A stretch of 64,000 nt of DNA from Arcobacteraceae bacterium (GTDB lineage Bacteria > Campylobacterota > Campylobacteria > Campylobacterales > Arcobacteraceae): contig OY759974.1 in the NCBI GenBank assembly GCA_963662945.1, forward strand, positions 544,001-608,000, in the 5' to 3' direction. Positions 1,583-57,286 of the stretch are shown here, in pieces. Below the pieces are notes generated by a model. That model was not told the origin of the DNA, ran no database searches, and saw nothing but the letters and a program-made list of their open reading frames with translations. The position numbers and the translations under genes were made by a program. Within the stretch, counting starts at the first letter, position 1, and every line of letters begins with the position of its first letter.

Positions 1583-1681
1583 AGATAAAATTCCTTCATA
1601 TTATATTTCGCGATTATATCAAAAATATGGTTAAATGGTTTTAAATTGTGGATTTACATTATTTTATTTATATTATAATGA

Positions 1682-2644
1682 TTAAAAATCCAATGGTGAT
1701 TTTATATCGCCTTTATTTAACTCCTTAACAACATGTGTATATATCATCGTAGTTTCGATAGATTTATGTCCTAATAACTCTTGTATGCTTCTTATATCTG
1801 TGCCATTCTGTAATAAATGTGTGGCATAAGAGTGTCTAAATATATGAGCTGTTACTCTTTTGTCTATATTAGATTTTGTAACTGCATTTTTTATATTTCT
1901 ACTTAATGTTACATCTAAAATATGATGCCGTCTTTGTTCACCACTTCGTGGATCTGTTGAAATTTTATCCATAGGAAAAATATACTGCCACTTTGTTTCA
2001 TATTTAGCATTTTTAAATTTACGCTCCAATGCATAAGGAATATAAACACTTCCAAATCCATCTTCTAAATCCTTTGTATGTAGTTCTTTTACTTTTTGTA
2101 CTTGTATTCTCAATTCATCCTTTATTTTTATAGGCAAAGGTAAAGTCCTATCTTTTAAAGATTTGCTATCCCAAATATAAATTTTATCGTATCCAAAGTC
2201 GATATCCTTAACCCTAATATTCTGAACTTCACTCATGCGAAGTCCGCATCCGTACATCAGTTTTACAATAAGTTGATAAATACCTTTCATATTTAGAATG
2301 ATATTTTTAACTTCATCTATAGTAAGCACTACAGGAATATGTTTCCTCTCTTGAGCTCTTAAAGCTTTAATATTTTCATTTTTTAATGATATATTCAAAA
2401 CTTGTTCGTAAAGAAAAACAATAGAATAAAAAGCTTGGTTTTGTGTAGTTGGGGATACATTTTGATTTTTTGCTAGATAGGTTAAATACTCTTCAATCTC
2501 TTTTTTACCCATAGTATTAGGATGTCGTTTATTATGAAACAAAATATATTTTTTTGCCCAATAAATATATACATTTTCTGTTTTTATACTATAGTGCTTT
2601 ACTCTTATTTTGTCCCTCATTATATCAAGTAATTTTTTTCCCAT
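1682..2644 (-). CDS. intI: Integron integrase (tyrosine recombinase)
   Basis: [25 protein letters not shown]...TTMIYTHV and the IntI-specific insert [17 protein letters not shown]; start moved to ATG 2644 (AGGAG RBS). Confidence 0.95.
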
Positions 2645-2871
2645 AACAACTCCTAAATTATAAAAATGTTGTTTAAAGTTAAGATTTTCACTTTTAACAT
2701 ACATTTTGTACATTAAAGTTCTAAATTTCAATATAAAATAAACATAAAACTATAACAAAAATAATAATCTATGGTAAAAAATATTGCATTTTGTAATATT
2801 TTTTACAAAAAAACCTAAAATAAGCTCTTCGTATCAATATATTAAACGAGTGAATTTAAGTACTTTATTTA

Positions 2872-2901
2872 TATAATGTATATTCAATAAATAGTTAGCT
2901 T
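2872..2901 (+). promoter_or_regulatory. Putative Pc -10 (TATAAT 2872-2877) and attI core (GTTAGCT 2894-2900)
   Basis: GTTAGCTT just before cassette 1 is the exact complement of AAGCTAAC (3487-3494) at the start of attC1. Confidence 0.75.
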
Positions 2902-2912
2902 AAAGGAGTATC

Positions 2913-3542
2913 ATGCAAGATAGTATTATAGCAGGTTTAATTTCAGGTCTAATTGTAACGTTATTTATAATTATATTTAAATCATTATGGGATAAAATTA
3001 TAATTCCTTGGTTTGAAGAAAGAATTTATAAAGATGCTTACATTGAAGGCACATGGTATAGTTTACATCCTGATGAAGCTTATTTTAGACAAGAAATTTT
3101 TGCACTAAAAAGAACAGGTCATAATATTATTGGTACAATGGTTTGTGTTGAAGGTGAAGATAAGGGTGAAGAATATACTGTTGAAGGAAGTTTTAGAAAT
3201 ATGATATTACCTCTAATTTATGAAAGTTCGGATACTTCAAAAACAGATAGAGGAAGTATTACATTAAAAGCCATAAGAAATGGTGAAGTATTAAGAGGAA
3301 AAATTTCTTTATATAATAATGGAAATGATGATATTACTTCAGCTACAATTATTTTGTTTAAAAATAAAGATGAATTAGAAAAAACAGTAAAGCATATCAA
3401 ACAACAAAAAGAAAAAATATTAAAAATGAGATTAGAAAAACAAAAACTTGAAAAGAATTTAAAAGAAGTGGAAGCATTACCTGAGGAAGCTAACAAAACA
3501 TTGGAAGAAGAACGAGTGACCCCTACGACTGATAAAGCTTAA
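2913..3542 (+). CDS. Cassette 1: N-terminal TM helix plus predicted beta-barrel (S-2TM-beta/Cap15-like), basic coiled tail
   Basis: Hydrophobic N-terminus, then IEGTWYS...L.YES...DRGSITL...LRGK beta-strand pattern; AAGGAG RBS. Confidence 0.55.
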   Translation: MQDSIIAGLISGLIVTLFIIIFKSLWDKIIIPWFEERIYKDAYIEGTWYSLHPDEAYFRQEIFALKRTGHNIIGTMVCVEGEDKGEEYTVEGSFRNMILPLIYESSDTSKTDRGSITLKAIRNGEVLRGKISLYNNGNDDITSATIILFKNKDELEKTVKHIKQQKEKILKMRLEKQKLEKNLKEVEALPEEANKTLEEERVTPTTDKA

Positions 3543-3654: not shown

Positions 3655-4539
3655 GTGAAAAAAATATCCACAATATTAGTTTTGTTAGCGGTCATAACAT
3701 TTACAAGTATAGCAATAGCAGAAGACAACAAGTCGACTTTAACAATCAAGAAGAATATGCAAATGGAGAAGCTTCAAAAAATAGCAAAGGAACCTTCTAA
3801 TCATAATTTATATAAATTACTTTACGAAAATTCATCTAGCTCAAATGATAGGATAATTTCCACTATACAATGGTCCATCGGGATAATATCAACTTTTGTA
3901 ATAGTTTTACTTGGTAGTCAAATTTTCTTTAACTATCGGGTAAATAAAGAAGAAATCAGAGCAATTAGAAGTGAATTAGAAGAAAGTTTTTCTGATTTAA
4001 GAGCTAATGCATTGGATGCCTCAAGCAAAGAAAGAAAAGAAATAATTAATAAGATTGATGACAAACTTGCAAAGGCAGAACAAAGTTATAAAGAAAGTAT
4101 ATCAAGTCATTACGCTGAACATGGTAGATACATTGATACAAAACTAGAGTCATTTGATAAGGATTTAATTAGATTAAAAGATACATTAAAAGTAGACATT
4201 AGTTATTTATCAATTGATTTAAAAAGATTAGAGGGTGAGGTATGGAAGCTAAAGGGTGTTCACGCAAATGCACTTAAGGATTTTATAAGTACTGTAGAGC
4301 TAGAAATTGAAAATGGTATCTCTCCAAAATATTCGTTAGATCATACAATAGAAACTCTTCAAAATGTCGAAAAAATTAGTAAGGATGATCGTATTGCACT
4401 AGAAGAGATGATAAAAAAAGTACCCAAAGAATATGATGCTAAAGTATCAAAGATTAAAGAACTATATTTATCCTTACCTCAATATATTTATGCTGAGGAT
4501 CCTCAAAGACCAGGTTATTTAAAAACAGTAGATCTTTAG
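3655..4539 (+). CDS. Cassette 2: signal peptide, one TM helix and long helical/coiled-coil region; function unknown
   Basis: ORF between attC1 and attC2, AAGGAG RBS, GTG start. Confidence 0.75.
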   Translation: MKKISTILVLLAVITFTSIAIAEDNKSTLTIKKNMQMEKLQKIAKEPSNHNLYKLLYENSSSSNDRIISTIQWSIGIISTFVIVLLGSQIFFNYRVNKEEIRAIRSELEESFSDLRANALDASSKERKEIINKIDDKLAKAEQSYKESISSHYAEHGRYIDTKLESFDKDLIRLKDTLKVDISYLSIDLKRLEGEVWKLKGVHANALKDFISTVELEIENGISPKYSLDHTIETLQNVEKISKDDRIALEEMIKKVPKEYDAKVSKIKELYLSLPQYIYAEDPQRPGYLKTVDL

Positions 4540-10315: not shown

Positions 10316-11794
10316 ATGAAATTTACAGATTTTAATCTAAAACAAGAGCTTAACAAAGCAATCGAAACAGCGGGATTTATTCAACCAAGTCCTATTCAAG
10401 AAGAGGCTATTCCTCAAGTGCTTATGGGTAAAGATATCGTAGCACAAGCACAAACAGGTACAGGGAAAACTGCAGCATTTGGACTTCCAGTTCTAAACAT
10501 GATGGAATGTAATGGAAAAGTTGAAATGGTTGTTATTGTACCAACAAGAGAACTTGCTATTCAAGTAAGTGATGAATTATTTAAATTCGGAAAGTTTTTA
10601 AATATAAAAACAGCAACAGTCTATGGTGGAACAGCGTATTCAAGACAAATTAAACATGTTGAAAGTGCTTCAATTATTGTAGCAACTCCAGGGAGATTTT
10701 TAGATTTACTTTCAAAAAAACAAATCAATATAAATCCAAAATATGTAGTTCTTGATGAAGCAGATGAGATGATGGATATGGGATTTTTAGATGATATTAA
10801 AGAGATTTTTGAACATCTAAAAAATAGAAAACAAACTTTAATGTTCTCTGCAACTATGCCCCTTCCAATTAAAAAACTAGCGGAAAAAATACTAGTAGAC
10901 CCATCTTTTATTACAGTAACTAAACAAGAGATGACAAATACGAAAATTGCACAATCTTTTTATGTTGTTGAAGAATATGAAAGAGATGATGCACTTATTC
11001 GACTTTTTGATTTTAAAAATCCAGAAAAAGCGATAGTATTTTGTAAAATGAAACGAGATGTTGACAGACTTTCAACATATTTAGTAGCACAAGGTTACAG
11101 TGCAAAAGGTCTTCATGGAGATATGGAGCAAAGACAAAGAGAAGAAGTTATACGAGCTTTTAAAACTGATACGTTAGAAGTTTTAGTTGCAACAGATGTA
11201 GCGGCACGTGGACTTGATGTAAAGGGTGTAACACACGTATTTAACTACCAACTTCCATTTGATAGTGAAAGTTATGTTCACAGAATCGGACGAACAGGTC
11301 GTGGTGGTAAAGAAGGAAGTGCAGTTTCAATTGTAACTCCAGCAGAATTTAGAAGTTTACAAAAAATACAAAAAGATGTAGGTTCAAATATAGAAAGTAA
11401 AATTGTTCCAAATAAAGCTTTAGTAAAAGATAAAGCCGTATTAGCGCTAAAAGAAAAAATTGCAACACAAGAGATTGATGAAGCAGTATATGAACTTGTT
11501 GAACAATTAAAAGAACAATATGATCTATCTAGTATCACTTATAAACTTGCGACAATCCTTATGAACCAAACAAAAATCAAAGGAAAAGATACTATTGGTA
11601 AATCTCAAAAAGATATTGAATTTTTACTAGAACGTGCTTTAAAAAGTAATGGTAGAGATTCAAGAGGTGGACGAAGTGGAAGCCGAAGTAGAGATAGAAA
11701 CAGAAGTGGCGGAAATAGAGACAGAAACCGAAATAGTGGAAATAAAGACAGAAATAGAAGTAGTGGAAACAAAGACTCAAGAGGTAGAAGATAA
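10316..11794 (+). CDS. DEAD-box RNA helicase
   Basis: Q motif, AQTGTGKT, PTRELA, DEAD, SAT, HRIGRTGR; Arg/Ser/Gly-rich tail. Confidence 0.95.
   Translation: MKFTDFNLKQELNKAIETAGFIQPSPIQEEAIPQVLMGKDIVAQAQTGTGKTAAFGLPVLNMMECNGKVEMVVIVPTRELAIQVSDELFKFGKFLNIKTATVYGGTAYSRQIKHVESASIIVATPGRFLDLLSKKQININPKYVVLDEADEMMDMGFLDDIKEIFEHLKNRKQTLMFSATMPLPIKKLAEKILVDPSFITVTKQEMTNTKIAQSFYVVEEYERDDALIRLFDFKNPEKAIVFCKMKRDVDRLSTYLVAQGYSAKGLHGDMEQRQREEVIRAFKTDTLEVLVATDVAARGLDVKGVTHVFNYQLPFDSESYVHRIGRTGRGGKEGSAVSIVTPAEFRSLQKIQKDVGSNIESKIVPNKALVKDKAVLALKEKIATQEIDEAVYELVEQLKEQYDLSSITYKLATILMNQTKIKGKDTIGKSQKDIEFLLERALKSNGRDSRGGRSGSRSRDRNRSGGNRDRNRNSGNKDRNRSSGNKDSRGRR
11690..11770 (+). repeat. 3 x 27-bp coding tandem repeat ((R/K)DRNRxxGN) in the helicase tail
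   Basis: agagatagaaacagaagtggcggaaat plus two variants. Confidence 0.8.
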
Positions 11795-20200: not shown

Positions 20201-21031
20201 TTACTTAAATTGTATGCAAAAGCCTCTATCAAAGTTCTCTAAGTCTTTATAAAACGTAACACTTTTAGTATTATAATTTTTTTCAATAAAGTTTTTCAAT
20301 GGAATTTTTTGATCATATCCCATCTCACATAATAAAAACTTTATCTCTTTTTTATGTGTTTCTTCTATAATATTTTTTAATAATTCATCACCACCTTTTC
20401 CACCAAAAAGTGCATTTGAAGGTTCATATTTTACATTTTTTGGCAACTTATAATCATCTGCTATATAAGGTGGATTTGATACTACCATATCAAATTGTAT
20501 ATCTAAAGGTACATTTGTAAATAAATCACTTTTTATAAATGTAATTTTATCTTCAACTCCATGTTTAATTGCATTTTCTTTTGCTAGTTCAAGTGCTTTA
20601 TCATTTATATCTACAGCTACTATTTCTATATCTTCTATTAATAGTGCCAACATAATAGAGATGATACCACTTCCAACTCCTATTTCTAAAACTTTAGGAG
20701 ATTTATTCTTTTGTAATATTTCTAAAGCTTTATCTACAAGTATCTCTGTTTCTGGACGAGGTATTAAAACCCCATCTCTTATATGAAACATCTCTCCATA
20801 AAAACTTGCTTTTTGAGTAATGTATTCAATAGGATACTCAGTCGCTCGTCTTTGTACAAGTTTTTTTAATTCTATTTCACAAGTACACTCTTTATCATAA
20901 TTAAGATGTAGCCATATCGTATTTTTTTCTAAAAGATGTAAAATAAGTATCTCTACCTCTTTTTGTGGTATATGTGTAACTTCTCGTAAAAGTACGCTAT
21001 ACTCTTTTATTATCTGCTTATATGTCTTCAA
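20201..21031 (-). CDS. prmC: Release factor glutamine methyltransferase
   Basis: LIPRPETE, EIGVGSG, SNPPY. Confidence 0.93.
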   Translation of the reverse strand: MKTYKQIIKEYSVLLREVTHIPQKEVEILILHLLEKNTIWLHLNYDKECTCEIELKKLVQRRATEYPIEYITQKASFYGEMFHIRDGVLIPRPETEILVDKALEILQKNKSPKVLEIGVGSGIISIMLALLIEDIEIVAVDINDKALELAKENAIKHGVEDKITFIKSDLFTNVPLDIQFDMVVSNPPYIADDYKLPKNVKYEPSNALFGGKGGDELLKNIIEETHKKEIKFLLCEMGYDQKIPLKNFIEKNYNTKSVTFYKDLENFDRGFCIQFK

Positions 21032-22277: not shown

Positions 22278-22730
22278 CTAATTTTCCCTTTTTATTTTTT
22301 CAACTATCTCTTGAAATTTTTGAATTTTTTCTTTTTCATCTGTAATATTTATAATTTCATAATTTTCTTCAAATGATTCTTTTTTCCAATTTGCACTTCC
22401 ATATATGGCAAATTTTTTGTCGATTATAGCTAGTTTTATATGTAATTTTCTTTTTGTTTGAACAAGCTTTATATTTTTATGAAACTTTAATTTTGATTTT
22501 TCATAAAGTATAACTACATTAACACCATTTTTACTAGCTTTTTCTAAAGCTTTCTCAAACTTTTTATAATCTATATTATACATCACTATATCAATACTTG
22601 TATGTGCATTTTCTATTAAATCAATAATCTCTTTTTGTACAAATGAAGATTCATCTGGCAAAAAATAAATCTTATCAAAACTAAAAGATGATATGACCAA
22701 TAAACACATTAATAATATTTTTTTAAACAT
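22278..22730 (-). CDS. Secreted phospholipase D/Nuc-like protein (single HKD)
   Basis: Signal peptide; HIKLAIID...GSANW...NYE. Confidence 0.8.
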   Translation of the reverse strand: MFKKILLMCLLVISSFSFDKIYFLPDESSFVQKEIIDLIENAHTSIDIVMYNIDYKKFEKALEKASKNGVNVVILYEKSKLKFHKNIKLVQTKRKLHIKLAIIDKKFAIYGSANWKKESFEENYEIINITDEKEKIQKFQEIVEKIKREN

Positions 22731-23577
22731 TGTCTTTATTTCCTTTGTCAAATAATTTTATAGTATCTATATTATAAAATCCTTGTAATTGTTTATACAC
22801 TTCTGGAAATTCTTGTTGTAGTTGTTTTGGTTTTTCAAAAAACAACTCACTAGAAACTGCAAAAAACTCTGCTTCGTTTATAGCTGCATAATGTCCAAAT
22901 AATTTATACTTTCCTAAAAATCTATTTTTTAATGATTTTGCATTTAGTGTTTTATAAGTGTGAAACATTATATTTGCCCAACTTGTATATTTCATATTGT
23001 CTAATATAGGTACACCATCTGCAACTCCATCTTCAAAATCCAACTCATGGGCAAACTCATGAATAATAACATTATGATTTTTAAAATGATATGCTTCTTT
23101 TTTTGCATGATGCCAAGATACTAAAACAACACCACCGGTACTTTGACCTTCTAATACTGACTTTTCTTGCGTATAAATTCCATCATAACTTTTCACTTCA
23201 TCAATAACGTATTCATAAGGGTACACATAAATTGTACTCAGATTTCCATAACTTTTTTCATCAAGATTTACTATCATCAGACAAGCATAAAAACTAATTA
23301 CAACTTTCATTTCAAAAGTCACCTCATTTTTCATCCCTATCCACTCTTTTTCTTCTATAAAAACCAACATTTTATATTGAAGTTTAAGTTTTGTCTTTTC
23401 ATCTAGTAACCCATAATAAGGTATTTTTTCTAATACTTTTTTATAATGTTCTGGAAAAGGGATATTTTTGAGTCGTTTTAAAAGTAAGATATGATCCATC
23501 CACTTAATACTCTCTACAAATAAAAATAAAGCTAAAATTATTAGTAATATTTGAGCTAAAGCACTAGAATAAATCAA
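22723..23577 (-). CDS. M90 family zinc peptidase (MtfA-like)
   Basis: HNVIIHEFAHELD, YAA.NEAEFFAV.SE.FFEKP. Confidence 0.85.
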   Translation of the reverse strand: MIYSSALAQILLIILALFLFVESIKWMDHILLLKRLKNIPFPEHYKKVLEKIPYYGLLDEKTKLKLQYKMLVFIEEKEWIGMKNEVTFEMKVVISFYACLMIVNLDEKSYGNLSTIYVYPYEYVIDEVKSYDGIYTQEKSVLEGQSTGGVVLVSWHHAKKEAYHFKNHNVIIHEFAHELDFEDGVADGVPILDNMKYTSWANIMFHTYKTLNAKSLKNRFLGKYKLFGHYAAINEAEFFAVSSELFFEKPKQLQQEFPEVYKQLQGFYNIDTIKLFDKGNKDNV

Positions 23578-47929: not shown

Positions 47930-50900
47930 TTATTTTAATATTTGAATAATTCTTTCCACTATTTGACTAAGCCCTTTATCTAACTCATTTCTATTTGCAA
48001 GGTCTTTTAAAGACAAAATTGTTTCTTCACTTTGTTTAGTGAGTGGATTTATATTTTTTCCATAAGCAAGATATTGAAATTTACCAAGTCCTAAAATAGC
48101 CTCTTGTTTTTCAGTTGGATTTTTTATTGCACTTCCTAATTTATCTAATCCTACAAAATCACTTACTATAACTGGTAAAATCTTCTTATTAGTATTTTGA
48201 GCTATCATCTCCATCCCTTTTACAACCTCCTCTTCTAAAATATAAGCAGATGTAAAAAAGTTAGCTGAAAGCATATAAATTATTAGGTCACTTTCCTCAA
48301 GCTCTCTTTGAATTTGATCATGCCATTTACCAATTTGTATATCCTCACAAGCCCAATTGTCAGCTAAATCAAAAAACTTTAATACACTTAAGTGTTTTCT
48401 TAATTCGTCTCTAAAATCAATATCTTTTCTTGAATATGATATAAATATCTTTTTCATCTTACTTATCTCCTTGTTATCTGAAATATTTTTAAATGCTCTT
48501 GTTGAAAGAACTATACTATTTTCTTTATTTATTTGTTTCTCTTTTATATTAAAAGCGATAATTTGTTCTTTTGTTTTTTCTTCATCTTCTAGTGTTTTAT
48601 AATGAACAAAGTGTTTGTTATTTAACGATATATATAAATCATCAGGAATAACCTTTTTAGTTTGTAATCTTTTTTCTAAAATTTCATTATTCTCTTTATG
48701 TTTGTTCTGTTCTATCTCATTTTCTTTTCTTGATGGATATAATTTACTTTCATATATTTCAATATCATTATATAACATCAATATCTCTTCAAAAAGGTAT
48801 TTCTGTGTCTCATCTATATCTTTTTTTGAAGTTTTATTATCCCCTATTACATATAATTTTATTTTTAATTCTTCAAAATCAAGTCTTATAAATACTTTGA
48901 TATGTTTATTGTTAAGTGTAAAAAGTAGCACATCTTTCCAATATTTCTTTATATCAGGAGTTCTGCCGTAAATACTAATCAATCGATTCATAAATCCAAA
49001 AGGAATAAAATACTCAAACTTCAAAGTTATACAAGGTGTTTGTATATCAAAGATATATAAAAAATCAGAACTATCTTCATTTATCCTAGGAAGATAACTA
49101 GGAACTATATAATACTTTTCGTTTGATATATCATCTGAAAATATCACTTTATTTTCTATAAGCATTAACACCAAATTTTCATCATTACAAAGTTTTCCAA
49201 ATTTATCTTTTGGTACTCTCCCTTTGTATGTAGATAGACTAGATACATCGAATATCTCATCATGTATTTTTTTTAGTGTTTTAGATGGATTAAGCCACGC
49301 TATTTTTGATAGTTCTTTATTATGAGGATAATAAAGTATCAATCCCTGCCTTGCAAGTTGATTTAAAATAAAATTAATTCTCTCTTTTGCATCTGGAAAC
49401 TTATCTACTATTGCAGATATTTCTATAGCATCGGGGCTATTTTGTTCAAAGATATATTTTTCTACTGCTATATCTATAGGGAGCTTTTTTATCATTTCAC
49501 TATTATCTATCTCATTTTTTAAATGTTTTTTTAATGAATCTAAATCTATATCATTAGTATTTTTATTATTTATATGAAACTGTCTATATATTTTTTTTGA
49601 AAGAATTTTATTATCCAAAAACTCTACACCATCATCATCAATATGTGTTTGAATAAGCCAGTACCTATTTAATAATACTTTTTCTTTATCTTTTTTATCA
49701 CCATTACTATTATAATTTTCATCAAAATTCCAAAGCTGTTTTATCCAATAATCTTTTGTAAAATTCTGAGTCTTTTCATTTCTTTTACTTTCATCATCAG
49801 ATAGAGTATTATTATCAGTTTGTTTTTTCCAAAAAATTAAACTTGTGGCATGATTTGTCATAAATGCTTTATATATCCCATGATAATAATCTTGTCCACC
49901 AAAATCATATATAATAGCTTTTTTATTTTCGTTATTTGGATAGGAAACAATATTAAGTATATGAGTACTTCCTGTTTGTGAATTATCTTCTATAAAGTGA
50001 TTTAAAAATTCACTCTTACCTGAGCTGTGATTTCCAACTAGCATTATTTTTTTTATACTTTTTATATCTTTTGCACTTTTACTACTAATACCTTGAAAAT
50101 AATCTTTTAGATCTTGAAGATTATTTGAGTCATAAGTTTCATCAAGCTTGAAATCAATTAATTCTTCTAAAAAAGGATTTTTGTAAATCCGCAATTCATC
50201 AAGTTCAGGTAAAGATTTTAACTCTTTTATACTCTTCATATCACTTATCTGATTCCTTGATAAATCTAATTTTTGTAAAGATTTTAACTCTTTTATACTC
50301 TCTATATCACTTATCTGATTATTTGATAAATATAATGTTTGTAAAGATTTTAACTCTTTTATACTCTTTATATCACTTATCTGATTATTTGATAAATATA
50401 ATGTTTGTAAAGATTTTAACTCTTTTATACTCTTTATATCACTTATCTGATTACTCCATAAATATAATGCTTGTAAAGATTTTAACTCTTTTATACTCTC
50501 TATATCACTTATCTGATTATTTGATAAATATAATGTTTGTAAAGATTTTAACTCTTTTATACTCTTTATATCACTTATCTGATTATCTGATAAATCTAAT
50601 TCTTGTAAAGATTTTAACTCTTTTATACTCTCTATATCATTTATCTTATTATATGATAAATCTAATTCTTGTAAAGATTTTAACTCTTTTATACTCTCTA
50701 TATCACTTATCTGATTATCTGATAAATCTAATTCTTGTAAAGATTTTAACTCTTTTATACTCTCTATATCATTTATCTGATTCCTTGATAAATATAATGT
50801 TTGTAAAGATTTTAACTCTTTTATACTCTTTATATCACTTATCTGATTACTCCATAAATATAATGTTTGTAAAGATTTTAACTCTTTTATACTCTTTATA

Positions 50901-51319
50901 TCACTTATCTGATTACTCCATAAATATAATGTTTGTAAAGATTTTAACTCTTTTATACTCTTTATATCACTTATCTGATTCCTTGATAAATCTAATTTTT
51001 GTAAAGATTTTAACTCTTTTATACTCTCTATATCACTTATCTGATTATCTGATAAATCTAATTTTTGTAAAGATTTTAACTCTTTTATACTCTCTATATC
51101 ACTTATCTGATTATCTGATAAATCTAATTTTTGTAAAGATTTTAACTCTTTTATACTCTCTATATCACTTATCTGATTATTTGATAAATTTAAACCTACT
51201 ATATTATTATCTTTATCTAATACATAGCCACCTTGATAGATGTTATATACCTCTTCTAAAGTAATACCATATGTTTTTTCCAATTCTAATATTAAATTTG
51301 GTTTTTCATTTTTCTTCAT
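47930..51319 (-). CDS. LRR-Roc-COR-TIR protein (bacterial Roco with C-terminal TIR)
   Basis: 15 LRRs; P-loop GNHSSGKS, STH, DFGGQ, THID; COR-like region; TIR IFISYSRKD...LSANFF.S.YI...E (47930-48457). Confidence 0.88.
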   Translation of the reverse strand: MKKNEKPNLILELEKTYGITLEEVYNIYQGGYVLDKDNNIVGLNLSNNQISDIESIKELKSLQKLDLSDNQISDIESIKELKSLQKLDLSDNQISDIESIKELKSLQKLDLSRNQISDIKSIKELKSLQTLYLWSNQISDIKSIKELKSLQTLYLWSNQISDIKSIKELKSLQTLYLSRNQINDIESIKELKSLQELDLSDNQISDIESIKELKSLQELDLSYNKINDIESIKELKSLQELDLSDNQISDIKSIKELKSLQTLYLSNNQISDIESIKELKSLQALYLWSNQISDIKSIKELKSLQTLYLSNNQISDIKSIKELKSLQTLYLSNNQISDIESIKELKSLQKLDLSRNQISDMKSIKELKSLPELDELRIYKNPFLEELIDFKLDETYDSNNLQDLKDYFQGISSKSAKDIKSIKKIMLVGNHSSGKSEFLNHFIEDNSQTGSTHILNIVSYPNNENKKAIIYDFGGQDYYHGIYKAFMTNHATSLIFWKKQTDNNTLSDDESKRNEKTQNFTKDYWIKQLWNFDENYNSNGDKKDKEKVLLNRYWLIQTHIDDDGVEFLDNKILSKKIYRQFHINNKNTNDIDLDSLKKHLKNEIDNSEMIKKLPIDIAVEKYIFEQNSPDAIEISAIVDKFPDAKERINFILNQLARQGLILYYPHNKELSKIAWLNPSKTLKKIHDEIFDVSSLSTYKGRVPKDKFGKLCNDENLVLMLIENKVIFSDDISNEKYYIVPSYLPRINEDSSDFLYIFDIQTPCITLKFEYFIPFGFMNRLISIYGRTPDIKKYWKDVLLFTLNNKHIKVFIRLDFEELKIKLYVIGDNKTSKKDIDETQKYLFEEILMLYNDIEIYESKLYPSRKENEIEQNKHKENNEILEKRLQTKKVIPDDLYISLNNKHFVHYKTLEDEEKTKEQIIAFNIKEKQINKENSIVLSTRAFKNISDNKEISKMKKIFISYSRKDIDFRDELRKHLSVLKFFDLADNWACEDIQIGKWHDQIQRELEESDLIIYMLSANFFTSAYILEEEVVKGMEMIAQNTNKKILPVIVSDFVGLDKLGSAIKNPTEKQEAILGLGKFQYLAYGKNINPLTKQSEETILSLKDLANRNELDKGLSQIVERIIQILK
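50213..51202 (-). repeat. 15 x 66-bp coding tandem repeat (22-aa LRR)
   Basis: Unit LQxLxLxxNQISDIxSIKELKS with an almost invariant DNA framework. Confidence 0.95.
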
Positions 51320-51351
51320 AATATAATATCCTATATTTTATATTGATAATT

Positions 51352-51385
51352 ATTTTATCATATCAATGTCACATCTAGTGTCACA
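51352..51385 (-). promoter_or_regulatory. TGTGACA-N5-TGTGACAT motif (copy 2) with extended -10 TGATAAAAT
   Basis: Same 20-mer and same spacing to the -10 hexamer as copy 1. Confidence 0.65.
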
Positions 51386-52082
51386 AAAAATTTAAACTTC
51401 TATTTTCTTTTAAAAAGCACCCAACACCATAAGGCTTTTTAGAATAATAATGTTTCCCATGCTCAACAATAAGTGCATGGTATTCTTGATATATTTTTCT
51501 TCTTTCATCTGTATCTTCTATCTCTTTTTCTAAAGCATCTTCAAATATCTTTTTTATATCCCTATACTTAGACTTTTCATCAATCAAACCAAGTTCTAAA
51601 AGCAATCTTTTAGTATAGGCATCTACTTTAAATTGCGCTTGATTATAACCATATAACAAAATAGAATCTGCTGTTTCTTCCCCTATTCCTTTTACTTTTA
51701 AAAGCTCTTCCCTACTTGGAACAGCCCCATTTAATGTATCAAAAAACTGTATAAACTCCAAAATATAATTTGCTTTTTGGTTAAAATACCCTGCTGGTTT
51801 TATAAGTGTTTTAAGTTTCTCTACATCCATAGCTTTTATAGCAACACTAGTGATACAATTATTTTCTTGTAAGTTGTTCATAGCTTTTGTAACAGATATA
51901 AAAGTAGTATTTTGCGTCAAAATTGACCCCAAGGCAACTTCAAATATTTGATCACTATTTTTAGGATAGCTATAATCATTTGGATGATAACCTATATCTA
52001 AAAAAGGCCACCAACCTTGTGCCCCATAATGTTTAAAAAGTGTTAAATAAATTTTGTAAATACTATTTGAAGTTTCCATCAA
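51381..52082 (-). CDS. HhH-GPD endonuclease III-related protein
   Basis: GSILTQNT, IKPAGYFNQKA, LLKVKGIGEETADSILLY, VDAYTKR, YQEYHALIVEHGK. Confidence 0.85.
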   Translation of the reverse strand: MMETSNSIYKIYLTLFKHYGAQGWWPFLDIGYHPNDYSYPKNSDQIFEVALGSILTQNTTFISVTKAMNNLQENNCITSVAIKAMDVEKLKTLIKPAGYFNQKANYILEFIQFFDTLNGAVPSREELLKVKGIGEETADSILLYGYNQAQFKVDAYTKRLLLELGLIDEKSKYRDIKKIFEDALEKEIEDTDERRKIYQEYHALIVEHGKHYYSKKPYGVGCFLKENRSLNFL

Positions 52083-52602
52083 GTTTCATCTTTTTTAATA
52101 TCTCATAAGTTTTACTTACATCATAAGTTGCACTATGATATGAATATGGATCAAAATCTATACCATAGTAGATACAAGTTTCATCTAGTTTTGGATTTTT
52201 AATATTGCCATTTTTATTCAAAGCTTTTACTATCTGTTTATTTTCTTTCATAGTACAAAAGTGTTTTTCAAACTTTACAAGCTTTTCTATATGTCGTAAC
52301 TCAAAGCTGATATTATGAGCAACCAAAGTCGTACAACCTTGACAAAAGGATACAAAATCTTCATCCTCTTTAAAATATGATGCATATTTTATCTCTTGTT
52401 TATTTCTATGTTCAAGAATAAGTTCTGGGGTTAATCTATGAACTGCGTAAGAGTAAGGGTTTACACTGTGTCTTGAGAGATAATATCTATGAAACTTATC
52501 TTTTACTATTATTTCATTATCTACAATTTCAACTTTTACAGCTGCTGCTTCTATCACATCATACTGGTGTGTTGTATTTGTTTCAAAATCTAATATTATC
52601 AT
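52063..52602 (-). CDS. DEDDh 3'-5' exonuclease (DnaQ-like)
   Basis: LDFET, LVAHNISFE, CTM, HSATYD. Confidence 0.85.
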   Translation of the reverse strand: MIILDFETNTTHQYDVIEAAAVKVEIVDNEIIVKDKFHRYYLSRHSVNPYSYAVHRLTPELILEHRNKQEIKYASYFKEDEDFVSFCQGCTTLVAHNISFELRHIEKLVKFEKHFCTMKENKQIVKALNKNGNIKNPKLDETCIYYGIDFDPYSYHSATYDVSKTYEILKKMKLDGNFK

Positions 52603-52613
52603 ATATTATCCCA

Positions 52614-54425
52614 CTATTTTATACTGTGAATTGTAGCGAAGTTCCCATTTGTTTTTACTAACCCTGATAATTTTTGTTGCTCCTGTTTAGTAATAATTTC
52701 ACTTTTTAAAAGTTCTCCTAAAATTGCTCCCGTTGTTCGTTCTAATTTTAAAGCTATTTGATCTATAGTATTTCCTTTTTTAAACATACTTTTGAGTTTT
52801 ATTTTATCTTCTAAACTCCATTTAAGTCCACTATTTTTAGCTTTTCCATCTTCTTGATTTTTTTGCTGTCGAAGGAGTTCTTTATCTTCTTGTTGCATTT
52901 TAGATGCACTAACTTTTTTCCCTGATTGTATCGCTTCTATATTTGCTTTTGCATCTTTGATTCTAGTGTCTATAAGTTTATCTACATTTTTAGCCATAAG
53001 ATAGTGAAAATTCTCACTATCTTTAACAAGTGCTTTTTTTGCTCTAGTAATAGCTACATAAAACAAATTAAATTCATCAAGAAGTTCTTGATTTGGTAGA
53101 AAGTTCTGCTCTTGCTTAAACTCCTCTAAACTATCACAACCAAAATCAACTATCAAATCTGCAAAATCTGTAAAGTCATCAGCTATCGTTACTCTGTCCC
53201 ACTCTAAACCTTTTGCAGTATGTGCTGTTGTTAAAAAGAGTATCTCTTGAAGCCTTTGTTCAAAGCCATTATTTGTTCTATTTTTCCAAGCATCATAAAA
53301 CTTTTTTGCTACCTCTTGAAATTCAAATATCTTTTCTTTATACTCTTTGGCAACTTTAAGTGCTGATTTTAGTTCAAAATCTTCAACCTCTTTTGCATAC
53401 TCTACAATATCTTCTTCACTACTAAAATCTTTTAAAAATCTATTTCGTACTATTTTTTCTTTTTGCTCATTAAGAAAATAATATACTTCAATAGTAAGAT
53501 TAAATATCTCATTTGGATCTCTTACTGTTACAAAAGGTTTTCTTTCATCTATTCGAGTAGAAATAGTAGCTATAAGTTGTGCATTTGTTCTTGAGATATA
53601 TCCACTTGTATTTATTGTTTTATCTCTATCTTTTGATGCTTCTATCTCTACATTTTCATTTTTAAATTTACCTAATAATTTATTGGCATACTGTGCTATA
53701 TCGTTATTAAATCTAAAACTGGAACTTAAATATAGTTTTTTATCACATTTAATTTTATCCAAGGCATTTTTACTTCCACGAAATGAGTAAATTTGTTGGT
53801 GTTTATCACCCACATATATTTTTGTTTTTGAACTTAAAGCTTCAAAGATACCTAATGTCACTTCATTTGTGTCTTGTGCTTCATCAAGCATAATAATATC
53901 GTAAGTGAATTGTGGGATTTGTTCAGAGGAAAGAAGAAGAAAATAGTACTTTAAATAAAAGCTATGAGTTGGTTTCATCTTTCCTAGTAGCATCAGGTCA
54001 AACATCTTTTGAGCACTTTTATGTTCTATATCATCTTTACCTATCTCTTGTTTTGTATTATTACAAAAATTTTCAAATATTTTTAAAGTACCTATTGCTT
54101 GATTATAAGTAATTCCAAACTCTTTTGATATATCAATTGCTCTATAATTTACAAGAGAATCCAAATTTACTTTAGTATATTTTTTTACTGCAACATAGGC
54201 TAAACCATGGGTTGTTTTTACACTTGTATTAGAAGGAAATATATTTGAGGCTTCATTTTTAATAGCACTGTTAAAAGCAAGATAAAGTATTTTTTTATTA
54301 TGATATTCTTGTGCTATAAGTTTTAAAGTGGTTGTTTTACCAGTACCTGCAAAAGCATTTATTTTTATATTTCTATACTGTTTTATAGATTCTAAAATCT
54401 CTTTTTGTTGTTGAGTTATTTTCAT
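52614..54425 (-). CDS. UvrD-like superfamily 1 helicase
   Basis: AFAGTGKTT, YLAFN, DEAQD, VGD.HQQIY.FRG, TAHTAKGLEW, YVAITRAK. Confidence 0.9.
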   Translation of the reverse strand: MKITQQQKEILESIKQYRNIKINAFAGTGKTTTLKLIAQEYHNKKILYLAFNSAIKNEASNIFPSNTSVKTTHGLAYVAVKKYTKVNLDSLVNYRAIDISKEFGITYNQAIGTLKIFENFCNNTKQEIGKDDIEHKSAQKMFDLMLLGKMKPTHSFYLKYYFLLLSSEQIPQFTYDIIMLDEAQDTNEVTLGIFEALSSKTKIYVGDKHQQIYSFRGSKNALDKIKCDKKLYLSSSFRFNNDIAQYANKLLGKFKNENVEIEASKDRDKTINTSGYISRTNAQLIATISTRIDERKPFVTVRDPNEIFNLTIEVYYFLNEQKEKIVRNRFLKDFSSEEDIVEYAKEVEDFELKSALKVAKEYKEKIFEFQEVAKKFYDAWKNRTNNGFEQRLQEILFLTTAHTAKGLEWDRVTIADDFTDFADLIVDFGCDSLEEFKQEQNFLPNQELLDEFNLFYVAITRAKKALVKDSENFHYLMAKNVDKLIDTRIKDAKANIEAIQSGKKVSASKMQQEDKELLRQQKNQEDGKAKNSGLKWSLEDKIKLKSMFKKGNTIDQIALKLERTTGAILGELLKSEIITKQEQQKLSGLVKTNGNFATIHSIK

Positions 54426-54480
54426 AAAGAAATTGTAACAGAATTTTTACAAGAGATAAAAAAATATTGCATTATGCAAT

Positions 54481-55059
54481 TTAAACAAAATTCTCTATTT
54501 GTAAAATCTCTTTAATAAAGATTTCAAAATCAGCTTTACAACTTCCAGCAAAACTGTTTTCTAAAAATTTATTTATCCCTTTATTTCTATGTTGTACTAT
54601 TGGAACTATTTTTATCCCTGTAATTTCAGACATAAAATGTGACTCATCTGCTTCTTCATACGCATGATTTAAAATTGATCTTGAAAAGTTATTTAAGATA
54701 TGATAATAGATATGTAAAAACTCGAGTTCATTTACCTTTAAAGCATAAAGATGTGTTACAAATTTTTCATCTTCATGGGAAACTACCCCTTGTACTTTTT
54801 CAGGTCGTACGCGAATACCAACTTCTTCTTTGATTTCCCGTACTAATGCATCTAAAAGAGGTTCCCCCTCTTCTAATGTTCCACCTGGAAAACCAATCCG
54901 TCCATCCCATCTATCAATCATAATAACAGCAGGGCAACGCGTGTGTTTTATATCGTCATTGAAGTATTTCCAAGGGGCTATCTCATCTGTATAAATTGAT
55001 AAGAAAACTGCATTTTTTTTATGATGATTAATCTCTCCAAAAGGGATTCGATTACTCAA
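54481..55059 (-). CDS. Nudix hydrolase, NUDT16-like
   Basis: RWDGRIGFPGG, REIKEEVG, FLENSFAGS; probable TTG start at 55059 overlapping the alr stop. Confidence 0.85.
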   Translation of the reverse strand: MSNRIPFGEINHHKKNAVFLSIYTDEIAPWKYFNDDIKHTRCPAVIMIDRWDGRIGFPGGTLEEGEPLLDALVREIKEEVGIRVRPEKVQGVVSHEDEKFVTHLYALKVNELEFLHIYYHILNNFSRSILNHAYEEADESHFMSEITGIKIVPIVQHRNKGINKFLENSFAGSCKADFEIFIKEILQIENFV

Positions 55060-56062
55060 TAATAACCCTTTTAATAGATGGTTTAAGGTTTGTAAGTATT
55101 TCATAGGTGATTGTGTTATGAACTTGCGCTAAATTTTTTGCATTATCAAAAACACATACTTGATTTTCTACTGATTCTACAAAAAAACTATCCATAGAAA
55201 CACGACCTAATATCTCTAATCCATTTGCTATTTTTCGAGACTTTTGTGTATTAGCACGACTTAAACCATCACCATAACCAATATCATAATTTGATACAAT
55301 CATATCACAAGGTGCAATAAAAGCATCGCTTCCATACCCTATATGGTCACCTTGTACAATCTCTTTTGTTGCGATTTTTTGTGCATAAAGAGAGAGAACT
55401 GGTTGTAGCTCTTTTTCTTCTTCAGTATCAAGGTAACCATAAATACCAATTCCTACTCTTGCCATGTCATATTGAGTCATATCTACTTTAAAAACACCTG
55501 TACTATTTGCACAATGTACTCTAAAGTTATAATCTATATATTTTTGTGTCTCTTTGATAGCTAATTGAAAATTTTCTTCTTGTTCTTTAGTAATACTATT
55601 TTCTTCATCTGAACAGCAAAAATGTGTAAAAATACCATTTAAAATAAGATGTTTGTTTTGTATCATTTCACAAGCTTTTTGTATCTCATTGATATAAATA
55701 CCATTTCGATTCATTCCTGTATCAATTTTTAATTCAACTTTACTACCGTTTGGAATTTGTTCTAAAAAAGCAAGTGAGTTTATAGATATTATGATACTTT
55801 GATCTTGTTTTGTGGTTGGAATATCATAAAGAACTAAAATTGACTCAAAATTAAATTTCAAAGCGATATGTGCTTCAGTCAAATCCCTTACAAATACATG
55901 TTTTATCCCATATTTACTTGCCATTGAAGCAACTTTTTCTGTTCCATGTCCGTAAGCATTGTCTTTTAAAGCTATAGCTAATTTGTTTTTAGAACCACAA
56001 GCTTTAGAAAAGAAATCTAAATTATGAAAAAAAGCTTTTTGATTTAGTTGAATATATCCCAT
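55052..56062 (-). CDS. alr: Alanine racemase
   Basis: LKDNAYGHG, KIDTGMNRNG, GYGDG, GRVSMD, TITYE. Confidence 0.93.
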   Translation of the reverse strand: MGYIQLNQKAFFHNLDFFSKACGSKNKLAIALKDNAYGHGTEKVASMASKYGIKHVFVRDLTEAHIALKFNFESILVLYDIPTTKQDQSIIISINSLAFLEQIPNGSKVELKIDTGMNRNGIYINEIQKACEMIQNKHLILNGIFTHFCCSDEENSITKEQEENFQLAIKETQKYIDYNFRVHCANSTGVFKVDMTQYDMARVGIGIYGYLDTEEEKELQPVLSLYAQKIATKEIVQGDHIGYGSDAFIAPCDMIVSNYDIGYGDGLSRANTQKSRKIANGLEILGRVSMDSFFVESVENQVCVFDNAKNLAQVHNTITYEILTNLKPSIKRVIIE

Positions 56063-56063
56063 T

Positions 56064-56918
56064 TTATTTTTGTAAAAATTGTGTACCTATACCATCACTT
56101 GTAAATAGTTCAAGTAAAATACTATGTTCAACTCTTCCATCTATAATATGAGCTTTATGTACGCCATTATAAATTGCTTCAATACAACTATCAACTTTTG
56201 GTATCATTCCACCAGCAATTGTTCCATCATCTTTGTATCGTTGTACATCTTCTTTGTCAAGTGAATTTAAAAGCTCTTTATTTTTATCTAAAACACCAAC
56301 AGTATCTGTTAAAAATAATACTTTATTTGCTTTTAGTGCTATAGCTATTTGAGCTGCTGCAATATCTGCATTGATATTAAATCCCGGATGATTTGGACTC
56401 TCACTGTTTGCAATAGGAGCAATAACAGGAACAAATCCCTCTTTAATCAAATCTTCAATCATCTGAGCATTGATAGAAGTAACTTCACCTGTATAACCAA
56501 ATTTTCCACCATCTTTTGGTTGAGCTTCAATACAATTACTATCTTTTCCACTAATACCAATAGCTTTTGTTCCATGATAATTTAAAAGTGAAGTGATATT
56601 TTTATTGATTTCACCACTTAAAACCATTTCAACAATTCTCATACTCTCTTCACAAGTTACTCTATGCCCATCAACAAATGTAGATGGAATCTGTAGTTTG
56701 TTTAACATATCAGATATTTTAGCACCACCACCGTGTACAATAACAGGTTTTATACCAACAAGTTGTAAAAGTGTAATATCTCTAGCAAATTTTTCTTGTA
56801 ACTCTGGACTTGTTTGTGCACTTCCACCATACTTTATAACAATTGTTTTATTTCTGAACTCTTTGATATAAGGAAGGGCATCAAGAAGTGTTTTGATTTT
56901 TTCTTGTTTTAATTTCAT
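56064..56918 (-). CDS. argB: Acetylglutamate kinase
   Basis: VIKYGG, VHGGG, NINAD, GGMIPKV, ELFT..GIGT. Confidence 0.95.
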   Translation of the reverse strand: MKLKQEKIKTLLDALPYIKEFRNKTIVIKYGGSAQTSPELQEKFARDITLLQLVGIKPVIVHGGGAKISDMLNKLQIPSTFVDGHRVTCEESMRIVEMVLSGEINKNITSLLNYHGTKAIGISGKDSNCIEAQPKDGGKFGYTGEVTSINAQMIEDLIKEGFVPVIAPIANSESPNHPGFNINADIAAAQIAIALKANKVLFLTDTVGVLDKNKELLNSLDKEDVQRYKDDGTIAGGMIPKVDSCIEAIYNGVHKAHIIDGRVEHSILLELFTSDGIGTQFLQK

Positions 56919-57286
56919 ATATGTTGTCTTTTTAGTTTATTTTTATTCTTTAAAAATATATATTTATCAGGATCAAGACTATCAAGAAAATCTATAATAT
57001 TTCTATCTTTCATTTTAATAGCATACATATAAGTTTCACTACTTACATGTGCACCATTATTTACTAAAAATTCTACAGCTTCTAAATGTCTATCTTTAAT
57101 AGCATAATCCAACGCTGTCATATTAAGAGCATCTTTATCATTTATTCTAGCGGCATAACTCAATAATAATCCCATAGAAATAGTATCATTATTTCTAGCA
57201 AAATGCATCAAAAGGGTAAAACCATTTGCATCAGATGTATTTGCATCTGCCCCATTTCGTAATAAATTAAATAAATCCTCTTTCAT
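56915..57286 (-). CDS. Ankyrin-repeat protein
   Basis: GADAN..D.NG.T.LM, TALDYA, FLVNNGA. Confidence 0.85.
   Translation of the reverse strand: MKEDLFNLLRNGADANTSDANGFTLLMHFARNNDTISMGLLLSYAARINDKDALNMTALDYAIKDRHLEAVEFLVNNGAHVSSETYMYAIKMKDRNIIDFLDSLDPDKYIFLKNKNKLKRQHI

Follow-up and report, generated by a model that had tools for sequence, protein, structure and literature searches.

An LRR-Roc-COR-TIR gene in an Arcobacteraceae genome, a candidate single-chain immune receptor of the Roco family

What does a bacterium do with a protein in which leucine-rich repeats (LRRs), a small GTPase and a TIR domain are joined in one chain? The question is raised by a gene of an Arcobacteraceae bacterium (assembly GCA_963662945.1) that lies within a 64,000-nucleotide stretch of contig OY759974.1, positions 544,001 to 608,000, referred to below as the window. 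An earlier annotation made from the letters alone, the sequence-only reading, had proposed that the encoded LRR-Roc-COR-TIR protein is a receptor composed of a sensor, a switch and an NADase. The analysis described here arrives at a similar answer: with a probability of roughly 60%, the gene product is a cytoplasmic, one-chain accessory receptor of the Roco family (Roc-COR, also called "AP-GTPase") that carries a TIR effector and would work by the mechanism set out further on, its function being predicted from sequence and structural models. The sensor-switch-NADase interpretation is partly supported, and the proposed function is plausible; those refuting outcomes named by the sequence-only reading that lend themselves to computation were all decided in its favor.

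Both the architecture and the immune idea have been in print for some time. Kaur, Iyer, Burroughs and Aravind (eLife 2021; PMC8195603) predicted that proteins joining LRRs, an AP-GTPase (Roc), COR and TIR serve as counter-invader systems, so the window gene adds detail rather than discovery and is a well-documented further example. What is added here is a clean natural case of presence and absence in relatives, a sister allele that combines the same Roc-COR with other LRR and TIR modules, and the linkage of relatives to a small protein known as PDC-M50A.

Domain architecture

The 1129-residue open reading frame (ORF) claimed at 47930-51319 (3390 bp) is uninterrupted at exactly that position. 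It is open on the minus strand only, a strand that the sequence-only reading had left unstated, and the plus-strand reading is stop-rich. The claimed lack of a signal peptide agrees with an N-terminus that is polar, as judged by eye, and every motif quoted earlier is in place (GNHSSGKS at residues 429-436, DFGGQ at 472-476, THID at 558-561, FISYS at 959-963 and YILEEE at 1026-1031). The domain scan with hidden Markov models that had been proposed as a check matched LRR, Roc and TIR_2 above the Pfam cut-offs and gave no Pfam match to COR in the query protein itself. The joined order of LRRs, Roc, a COR-like region and TIR is upheld by Pfam, by a family profile compared with the Roco protein of Chlorobium tepidum (CtRoco), by an AlphaFold2 model and by Foldseek (coordinates in Table 1). 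The 2.497-Mb genome holds one copy of the gene; a second Roco was not found there, the next Roc match being translation factor IF-2, and no TIR_2 gene was found elsewhere in it.

Pfam places Roc (PF08477) at residues 424-505, with an E value of 2.7e-9 and 37.7 bits against a cut-off of 27. Across an alignment of 49 homologues that are 32-88% identical to the query (alignment A1), the invariant Roc columns are G429, N430, H431, G434, K435, T452, D472, F473, G474, G475, Q476 and Q557. All of the nucleotide-binding and switch motifs are intact, and the domain is predicted to bind and hydrolyze GTP.

Most of what can be said about COR comes from relatives and from structure. Pfam models match COR-A in 29 of the 49 aligned homologues and COR-B in 13. 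In a phmmer search of the PDB the top matches were CtRoco chains (6hlu_A, E 5.7e-82, query residues 9-569), and a profile of the 49 homologues extended the match to chain residues 242-862 of 6hlu_A (E 7.7e-113), that is, into COR; the same profile matched residues 1175-1636 of LRRK2 with an E value of about 5e-35. The full-length AlphaFold2 model has a predicted local distance difference test score (pLDDT) of 87.6 and a predicted template-modelling (TM) score (pTM) of 0.74. Its best Foldseek match is the LRR-Roc-COR crystal structure 6hlu (E 1.6e-43, 910 aligned columns), followed in the ranking by the GTP state of CtRoco, LRRK2 and LRRK1. Structural alignments to 6hlu span 910-1031 columns, and the model is nearer to this closed form (TM 0.62 on target) than to the open GTP form 8r4b (TM 0.46). 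A helical insert at residues 860-890 of COR is of low confidence, with a pLDDT dip at 864-887. On profile and model evidence a COR region is present despite the missing Pfam match, and the predicted protein has the Roc with adjoining COR that membership of the Roco family calls for.

The tail of the protein begins with a TIR domain. TIR_2 (PF13676) matches residues 958-1054 (E 3.7e-11, 44 bits against a cut-off of 28), and a PADLOC model of the ThsB1-type TIR matches the TIR core with an E value of 5.6e-14 over model positions 1-98 of 319. TIR columns invariant among the 49 homologues are K957, F959, S961, S963, W989, D1011, S1018 and E1031, and a second alignment, of 38 TIR tails (alignment A2), has five invariant columns, E1031 among them. 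The YILEEE motif holds three glutamates, of which the conserved one is the third, E1031; in the 89% identical orthologue described below the corresponding residues read LQKE. A PDB search with the single TIR-tail sequence returned nothing meaningful, and the A2 profile was needed to bring out TLR15/2, Cat1, the 7uxr TIR protein, the plant TIR 7xoz, AbTir, RUN1 and RPP1, with E values of 4e-6 to 1e-3. Among the alignments listed, E1031 falls on the glutamate of the "...W(C)..EL" motif in Cat1, 7uxr, 7xoz and TLR, the column of the catalytic glutamate of NADase TIRs. The earlier placement of a glutamate at the catalytic position is thus retained and narrowed to one residue.

A separate model of the TIR tail (pLDDT 88.4, pTM 0.83) found RPS4, RUN1, L6, RPP1, SARM1, AbTir (TM 0.78 on target) and Cat1 among its Foldseek matches. 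A homodimer prediction for the tail (A2, two copies) gave a score of 0.00 (mark 0.42) and counts neither for nor against self-association. Beyond the core lies an extension of about 75 residues that is confined to the nearer clades of the TIR-tail alignment. Fold and conserved glutamate are both those of NADase-type TIRs, and NAD+ cleavage is predicted.

A sensor end that varies

Pfam LRR_4 matches the query in 13 stretches with an E value of 1.2e-98, and Tandem Repeats Finder (TRF) describes the underlying DNA as a tandem array with a 66-bp period, 14.9 copies and 94% matches (50209-51193). The count of fifteen LRRs made from the letters alone holds: fifteen regular 22-residue repeats are followed by a degenerate sixteenth. 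The fifteen repeats differ by 15 distinct codon variants, all of them non-synonymous. Ten of these variants are accounted for by repeat positions 2, 4, 5 and 22, which are x positions of the LxxLxLxxN motif and lie on the concave face; position 12 (E or K) is a further variable site, and single variants occur at positions 7, 9, 11 and 21. If about a quarter of random changes were synonymous, 15 out of 15 would arise with a chance of about 0.01, which is a rough estimate rather than a formal test. The sister-species orthologue (89% identity) has 12 repeats, three fewer, and varies at mostly the same positions, with two synonymous variants. Variation in the LRRs thus sits mostly on ligand-facing positions, and the sensor end diversifies fast.

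Plus-strand ORFs of 81, 118 and 335 amino acids also lie inside the gene, antisense to it, the longest of them in the repeat array. All three are treated as by-products of the periodic sequence. The longest (50257-51264) is most likely not a gene; its length is most likely due to the 66-bp periodicity, which repeats a stop-free frame.

The LRRs are internalin-like, and they bring in another explanation, namely that the protein is a host-interaction or virulence factor that reaches eukaryotic cells, where its TIR would disturb host TLR signaling or NAD+. The resemblance is real as far as the repeats go (NCBIfam internalin_A, E 5.9e-65; InlA structures, E 1e-57), some homologues are named "internalin A" in public sources, the Brucella TIR protein BtpA is among the structural matches, and homologues occur in Aliarcobacter butzleri. 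That said, the internalin_A match reaches 220 bits where the cut-off is 1600, and there is neither an N-terminal hydrophobic segment nor a secretion-system gene nearby. The homologues, moreover, come from metagenomes of sludge, soil, marine and gut origin as well as from free-living Flavobacteriia, and they often have defence or conjugative-element genes as neighbors. A virulence role would also leave the invariant, cytoplasmic-type GTPase switch unexplained, and we regard it as very improbable. The protein is not a class 1 internalin: its internalin_A score and that for InlH (166 bits against 1050) both lie below the curated cut-offs, and the matches are confined to the LRR part.

A mosaic allele in a sister species

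Comparison with the orthologue (locus L004, genome G013) points to turnover at the other end of the protein as well. Nucleotide identity is 97-100% over 48450-50208, except for an 85% patch at 49050-49199, and falls to 68-81% over 47930-48449, the drop lying at about residue 956, among the first residues of the TIR domain. Synonymous divergence (dS) is 0.034 in the linker and Roc (residues 373-600; ratio of non-synonymous to synonymous divergence, dN/dS, 0.47) and 0.064 in COR (residues 601-940; 0.36), compared with 1.24 in the TIR core (residues 950-1055; 0.13) and 0.52 in the C-terminal tail (residues 1056-1129; 0.64). A gap of some 20-fold or more in dS itself reflects separate ancestries brought together by recombination, and not selection alone. 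Two histories would account for it, a recent exchange of Roc-COR between the species or replacement of the TIR module. The effector end, like the sensor end, turns over fast.

The flanking MFS and glycosylase genes are mostly 80-95% identical to those of the orthologue locus in 150-bp windows, and the farther flanks 76-83%. In one BLAST alignment against L004, the segment 46.7-52.1 kb as a whole is about 90% identical, above the farther flanks, which suggests cross-species recombination at this site.

Presence, absence and an empty site

With residues 400-1129 as the query, a homologue was found in 1 of 27 other genomes of the same genus (G013, 89% identity), and no full match was found in the 33 other genomes of the wider family and order, one of which (G028) gave a weak match in the TIR region only. 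Of 400 other genomes of the same phylum, 1 has a homologue (G123, 44% identity). Relatives were likewise missing from 50,697 phage records and 72,556 plasmids, and viral contigs gave no real match (one of 28% over 71 residues).

In the close relative G025, the MFS-transporter and HhH-GPD-glycosylase genes that flank the window gene keep their synteny (83-86% identity) with only about 93 bp between them, an exact empty site for the LRR-Roc-COR-TIR gene alone; in the window the gene is set off from the same two neighbors by spacers of 35 and 61 bp. Uniform conservation in the manner of a housekeeping gene, which the sequence-only reading had named as an outcome that would speak against an immune role, is therefore not what is seen. 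It is accessory, patchy in its distribution and subject to a clean presence/absence polymorphism. Its GC content (0.24-0.25) is below that of its flanks (0.29-0.32). The empty-site spacer of G025 (locus L015, about 4213-4312, about 93 bp) contains an inverted repeat of about 29 nt that may be a regulator site or the remnant of a terminator.

These data bear on the possibility that the protein is a housekeeping signaling GTPase serving the cell's own physiology, in which the TIR would be an adaptor for protein-protein contacts only. The gene is embedded co-directionally among core genes, and the abstract of PMC11052575 states no physiological role for CtRoco, the best-studied bacterial Roco. 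Against this stand the failure to find the gene in 26 of the 27 same-genus and 399 of the 400 same-phylum genomes, the empty site in a close relative, the invariant glutamate, and the speed with which LRR number and TIR module change between sister species. A housekeeping role is hardly credible on this evidence.

Relatives and their neighbors

A word-indexed search returned 265 matches, nearly all with LRR, Roc and TIR_2, from Aliarcobacter butzleri, Sulfurimonas, Kordia, Tenacibaculum, Chryseobacterium, Winogradskyella and Parabacteroides among others, some mislabelled "internalin A"; an exhaustive search gave 244 clusters (50% identity) at E<=1e-30. A single-protein search of genome contigs recovered the 89% orthologue only, so homologue gene contexts come from metagenome contigs: of 80 such loci, 40 with usable flanks were taken. 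The family's own Roc, COR and TIR profiles match 40, 38 and 39 of these 40. Four were dropped (two near-duplicates, one without a TIR and one with a broken focal ORF), leaving 36 loci in which 269 of 270 neighbors within 5.5 kb were scanned with PADLOC. A threshold of E<=1e-40 was set for defence neighbors because matches at E<=1e-8 proved unspecific in ordinary DNA.

At that threshold, 9 of the 36 loci have a strong neighbor other than PDC-M50A, compared with none of 59 control ORFs in the window. These neighbors are PDC-S01 (L034), ThsB (L049), ThsB with AbiEi (L050), ThsA with ThsB (L053), PDC-M10B with PDC-S05 (L060), ThsB with PDC-S25 (L063), SWIM_XIII (L067), SIR2 with HerA (L089), and a type I methyltransferase with PrrC (L095). 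Pfam searches of 42 selected adjacent neighbors added NACHT proteins in L063, L050 and L071, a faint NACHT match (E 0.003) with SMEK_N in L044, PIN_8 (L072), conjugative coupling proteins (L064 and L074), a serine recombinase (L064), an integrase (L050) and a GIY-YIG nuclease (L091). The proposed check of whether homologues sit in defence islands thus turns out favorably for some of them, which lie beside defence genes, and not for the window gene itself, whose surroundings are core metabolism and DNA repair. In L050 (2895-4122, minus strand), two adjacent ORFs of 186 and 229 amino acids match positions 4-170 and 169-392 of one and the same ThsB model; the pair looks like a split or frameshifted ThsB and lies beside the Roco-TIR homologue, a NACHT protein, AbiEi and an integrase.

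A recurrent partner is a small one. Directly beside the Roco-TIR gene in 12 of the 36 loci (L025, L028, L031-L034, L041, L046, L049, L054, L056 and L058) is a gene for a protein of 136-169 amino acids that matches PADLOC PDC-M50A over its whole length with E values of 1e-29 to 1e-47 (for example L049:8462-8869 and L033:13329-13778). It has three hydrophobic helices by eye, no convincing Pfam family, and more than 1300 homologues in public data, every named one of which is annotated as hypothetical. One of its loci, L025, is among the nearest relatives of the window TIR tail (56% identity). The 12 loci are not independent, because they represent about four clades and eight of them come from one. 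PDC-M50B was matched in neither the query protein nor 18 homologues. For some members of the Roco-TIR family, the PDC-M50A protein may serve as a membrane partner or effector.

Such a linkage raises the possibility that the TIR is a signal generator, as in ThsB, producing a nucleotide derived from ADP-ribose that activates an effector encoded elsewhere, in many relatives possibly PDC-M50A. Several findings fit. PADLOC matches in the query are to the ThsB1-type TIR model only and, in 16 of 18 homologues, to TIR-domain models only (one with a weak PDC-S66 match in addition; the other two match nothing); PDC-M50A adjoins the Roco-TIR gene in at least four clades; ThsA and/or ThsB are neighbors in L049, L050, L053, L063 and L072; and the genome of the window gene itself encodes a SIR2_2 protein beside a CAP12/PycTIR-type protein some 590 kb away. 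On the other hand, the window gene, between its short spacers, has no adjacent partner, and one query found no PDC-M50A homologue in its genome. In the SIR2_2 protein the match to the ThsA model is limited to the SIR2 part (105-279 of 478) and does not extend to a ligand-binding SLOG part, and the bulk of the PDC-M50A loci form one clade. A Macro-type ThsA was not found in the genome either, in a search that matched nowhere and is hence uninformative. For the window gene a signal-generating TIR seems rather unlikely. Two known systems were rejected as assignments: Thoeris, with a partial ThsB1 match only, an MFS transporter and an HhH-GPD glycosylase as neighbors and no adjoining ThsA; and the PDC-M50 system, with PDC-M50A absent beside the gene and from its genome as searched.

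A broader conjecture joins these observations, and it is possible though speculative. The family may be built on a conserved Roc-COR chassis, with both ends serving as cassettes that are swapped within very short spans of time, LRRs being gained or lost by three units and varied only on the ligand face, and the TIR being replaced, or retained from an older allele, with a breakpoint exactly at the COR/TIR joint. It might then work in two modes, as a self-sufficient NAD+ depleter like the window protein or as a Roco-TIR that signals to a membrane effector, the three-helix PDC-M50A protein being paired with the receptor in about a third of the loci. Experimental proof of this would give the first functional evidence for an immune beginning of the LRRK2 family.

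A proposed mechanism and its difficulties

For the window protein, the preferred reading is a self-contained immune receptor. At rest, the LRR arm would be folded back on Roc-COR as in closed CtRoco, with the TIR inactive. A ligand derived from a phage or mobile element would bind the variable concave face of the LRRs and, together with GTP on Roc, would bring about a large hinge opening of the sort described for CtRoco. The freed TIRs of several molecules could then associate and form composite active sites that cleave NAD+, which would either be depleted, as in abortive infection, or be turned into an ADP-ribose-derived signal, and GTP hydrolysis would reset the switch. Recognition of a ligand by the LRRs, opening of the molecule with GTP (by analogy with CtRoco), assembly of the TIRs and their attack on NAD+ are all predicted steps.

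One premise of the sequence-only reading fits poorly. It had assumed that Roco proteins switch through GTP-dependent dimerisation, which is the wrong direction for the one bacterial Roco that has been studied: GTP-bound CtRoco is described as an open monomer (PMC11052575).

Several points weigh against an immune receptor. The monomeric GTP state of CtRoco does not by itself explain how TIRs would oligomerise, and the position of E1031 at the residue level comes from sequence-profile alignment and not from superposed coordinates. Most homologue loci (27 of 36) have no strong defence neighbor, 10 of the 59 ordinary window ORFs match PADLOC models at E<=1e-8, and the Roco part of the protein is covered by no PADLOC model in the query or in 18 homologues. 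The gene's own locus, between an MFS transporter gene and a string of genes of DNA-repair type, is not a defence island, because its neighbors are ordinary (MFS transporter, HhH-GPD glycosylase, RNase T-like exonuclease, UvrD-like helicase, NUDIX, alanine racemase and glutamate synthase) and lack a strong PADLOC match; the best E value in the window is 7e-28, all matches there being to partial domains. Marks of insertion are also lacking, with no tRNA or Rfam family in the window and no integrase or (terminal) repeat seen at the junctions. Finally, a literature search, mostly outside subscription journals, found no experimental test of LRR-Roc-COR-TIR proteins.

Relation to known systems

The closest precedent in print is the AP-GTPase catalogue of Kaur et al. 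(PMC8195603), which describes fast-evolving N-terminal LRRs, an AP-GTPase, COR and a variable C-terminal effector, TIR being one of at least 24 alternatives, and which likewise proposes an NLR-like arrangement of sensor, switch and effector. The features expected of such counter-invader systems are found here in the domain order, in the number and surface variation of the LRRs, and in a TIR whose ancestry differs from that of Roc-COR. That work is a computational catalogue, and its passages on these proteins (the GT4-domain section and the legend to Figure 6D) do not include the present Campylobacterota member, its empty site, the COR/TIR breakpoint or the PDC-M50A linkage. AP-GTPase and COR have also been placed in ternary systems (PMC7159879).

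CtRoco (6hlu, 8r4b and 5il7) shares the LRR-Roc-COR core, at 27-30% identity over full chains and 48-49% over the LRR domain. It differs in that no TIR is seen: the profile match ends in COR, and no CtRoco chain is among the TIR-profile matches. Human LRRK2 and LRRK1 are homologous over LRR-Roc-COR-A (Foldseek E 1.7e-23), and LRRK2 also has a THxD-type G4 motif. Unlike the window protein, which has a TIR at this point and lacks ankyrin or armadillo repeats, LRRK2 continues after COR with a kinase and WD40. To our knowledge, Roco proteins have been studied almost only as models of human LRRK2.

The NAD+-cleaving TIRs (AbTir, RUN1/RPP1/RPS4, SARM1, Cat1 and ThsB) share the fold and the conserved glutamate and are activated in STAND, SAM, CARF or stand-alone contexts, whereas activation of the TIR here is presumably the task of a Roc-COR GTPase; this TIR also carries its own tail. 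STAND NLRs such as Avs and bNACHT resemble the window protein in combining a repeat sensor, an NTPase switch and an effector in one chain, and NACHT proteins are neighbors of some homologues. The switch of the window protein, however, is a small Ras-like GTPase with COR and not a STAND ATPase, which makes it an analogue rather than a member of that class; no STAND family appears in its Pfam, NCBIfam or PADLOC matches, and assignment to Avs or bNACHT was rejected.

A eukaryotic parallel exists in the LRR-ROCO candidate immune receptors of brown algae, for which LRR-ROC-COR order, shuffling of LRRs and diversifying selection on them have been described (PMC11378527). As presented there, the algal proteins differ in being eukaryotic, in their exon shuffling and in having no C-terminal TIR; the same source mentions a TPR-ROCO-TIR protein in a red alga.

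Should this family prove to be a working anti-phage receptor, STAND NLRs and the dynamin- or GIMAP-like GTPases would be joined by a third type of immune switch built as one chain, and the LRRK2 lineage would gain an immune origin. The locus offers practical handles: a single 3.4-kb gene, relatives with and without it on the same flanks, a sister allele in which the same Roc-COR carries another TIR and a shorter LRR array, and K435 and E1031 as obvious positions for mutants.

Table 1. Positions of the gene, its upstream region and the parts of the encoded protein in the window
Feature	Position	Strand	Evidence and details
LRR-Roc-COR-TIR gene (P0001)	47930..51319	minus	1129 codons + stop; ORF list, translation, domain matches
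Upstream spacer, 61 bp	51320..51384	minus	promoter-like site 51357-51384 (extended -10); AGGA Shine-Dalgarno 51329-51332, 9 nt before ATG
N-terminal LRR solenoid cap, residues 1-42	51194..51319	minus	model helix 8-17 and first strands; aligned to CtRoco LRR start
15 regular 22-residue LRRs, residues 43-372	50204..51193	minus	TRF and per-position codon table
Degenerate 16th LRR / C-terminal cap and LRR-Roc linker, residues 373-420	50060..50203	minus	translation; model helices 382-386, 401-412
Roc GTPase domain, about residues 421-590	49550..50059	minus	Pfam Roc 424-505; motif invariance; CtRoco sequence match through residue 569
Roc P-loop, G429-S436	50012-50035	minus	
Roc switch I, T452		minus	
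Roc switch II, D472-Q476	49892-49906	minus	
Roc G4, T558-D561	49637-49648	minus	
COR region (COR-A and COR-B), about residues 591-945	48485..49549	minus	family profile, homologue matches, structural match; helical insert 860-890
Recombination breakpoint, COR/TIR joint	48440..48460		150-bp window identities; dS contrast
TIR core, residues 955-1055	48155..48457	minus	TIR_2, PADLOC ThsB1-type model, domain model, profile alignment; Glu1031 at 48227-48229
Family-specific C-terminal extension, residues 1056-1129	47933..48154	minus	helices and two beta-hairpin strands in models

Other features of the window and the genome

The promoter-like site in Table 1 comes from a consensus scan, a weak guide in AT-rich DNA such as this (60 sites found against 44 expected). 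Upstream of the gene and co-directional with it (51381-55104, minus strand) are the HhH-GPD glycosylase, an RNase T-type (DEDDh) exonuclease, the UvrD-like helicase, which has a partial GajB-like match (1e-21), and a NUDIX hydrolase. In two relatives (L015 4990-6765 and L004 13907-15221) the glycosylase and exonuclease genes are separated by an ORF of 408 amino acids, accompanied in one of the two by an ORF of 169 amino acids; by sequence inspection these are candidates for a DEAD-box helicase and a methylated-DNA-cysteine methyltransferase. The glycosylase/exonuclease boundary is thus a second variable junction.

Farther along, at 56915-57286 (minus strand), a 123-residue ankyrin-repeat protein (Ank_2, E 2e-14) is encoded between the genes for an amino-acid kinase and the small subunit of glutamate synthase; ankyrin repeats are uncommon in free-living bacteria. 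Partial PADLOC matches also occur in ordinary-looking genes, namely a DrmC-like one at 22278-22751 (minus strand, 2.7e-16), a mad2-like methyltransferase at 20201-21031 (minus strand, 2e-23) and a DEAD/DEAH helicase (DpdF-like) at 10316-11794 (plus strand, 7e-28).

Elsewhere in the genome (G000:C1, about 1000-3400; L106 241-2634, minus strand), the SIR2_2 protein of 379 amino acids mentioned above, which has partial ThsA, LmuA and PDC-S25-like matches, adjoins the 371-residue TIR-like protein of CAP12/PycTIR type. The two are candidates for an NAD-linked defence pair of their own, some 590 kb away from the LRR-Roc-COR-TIR gene.

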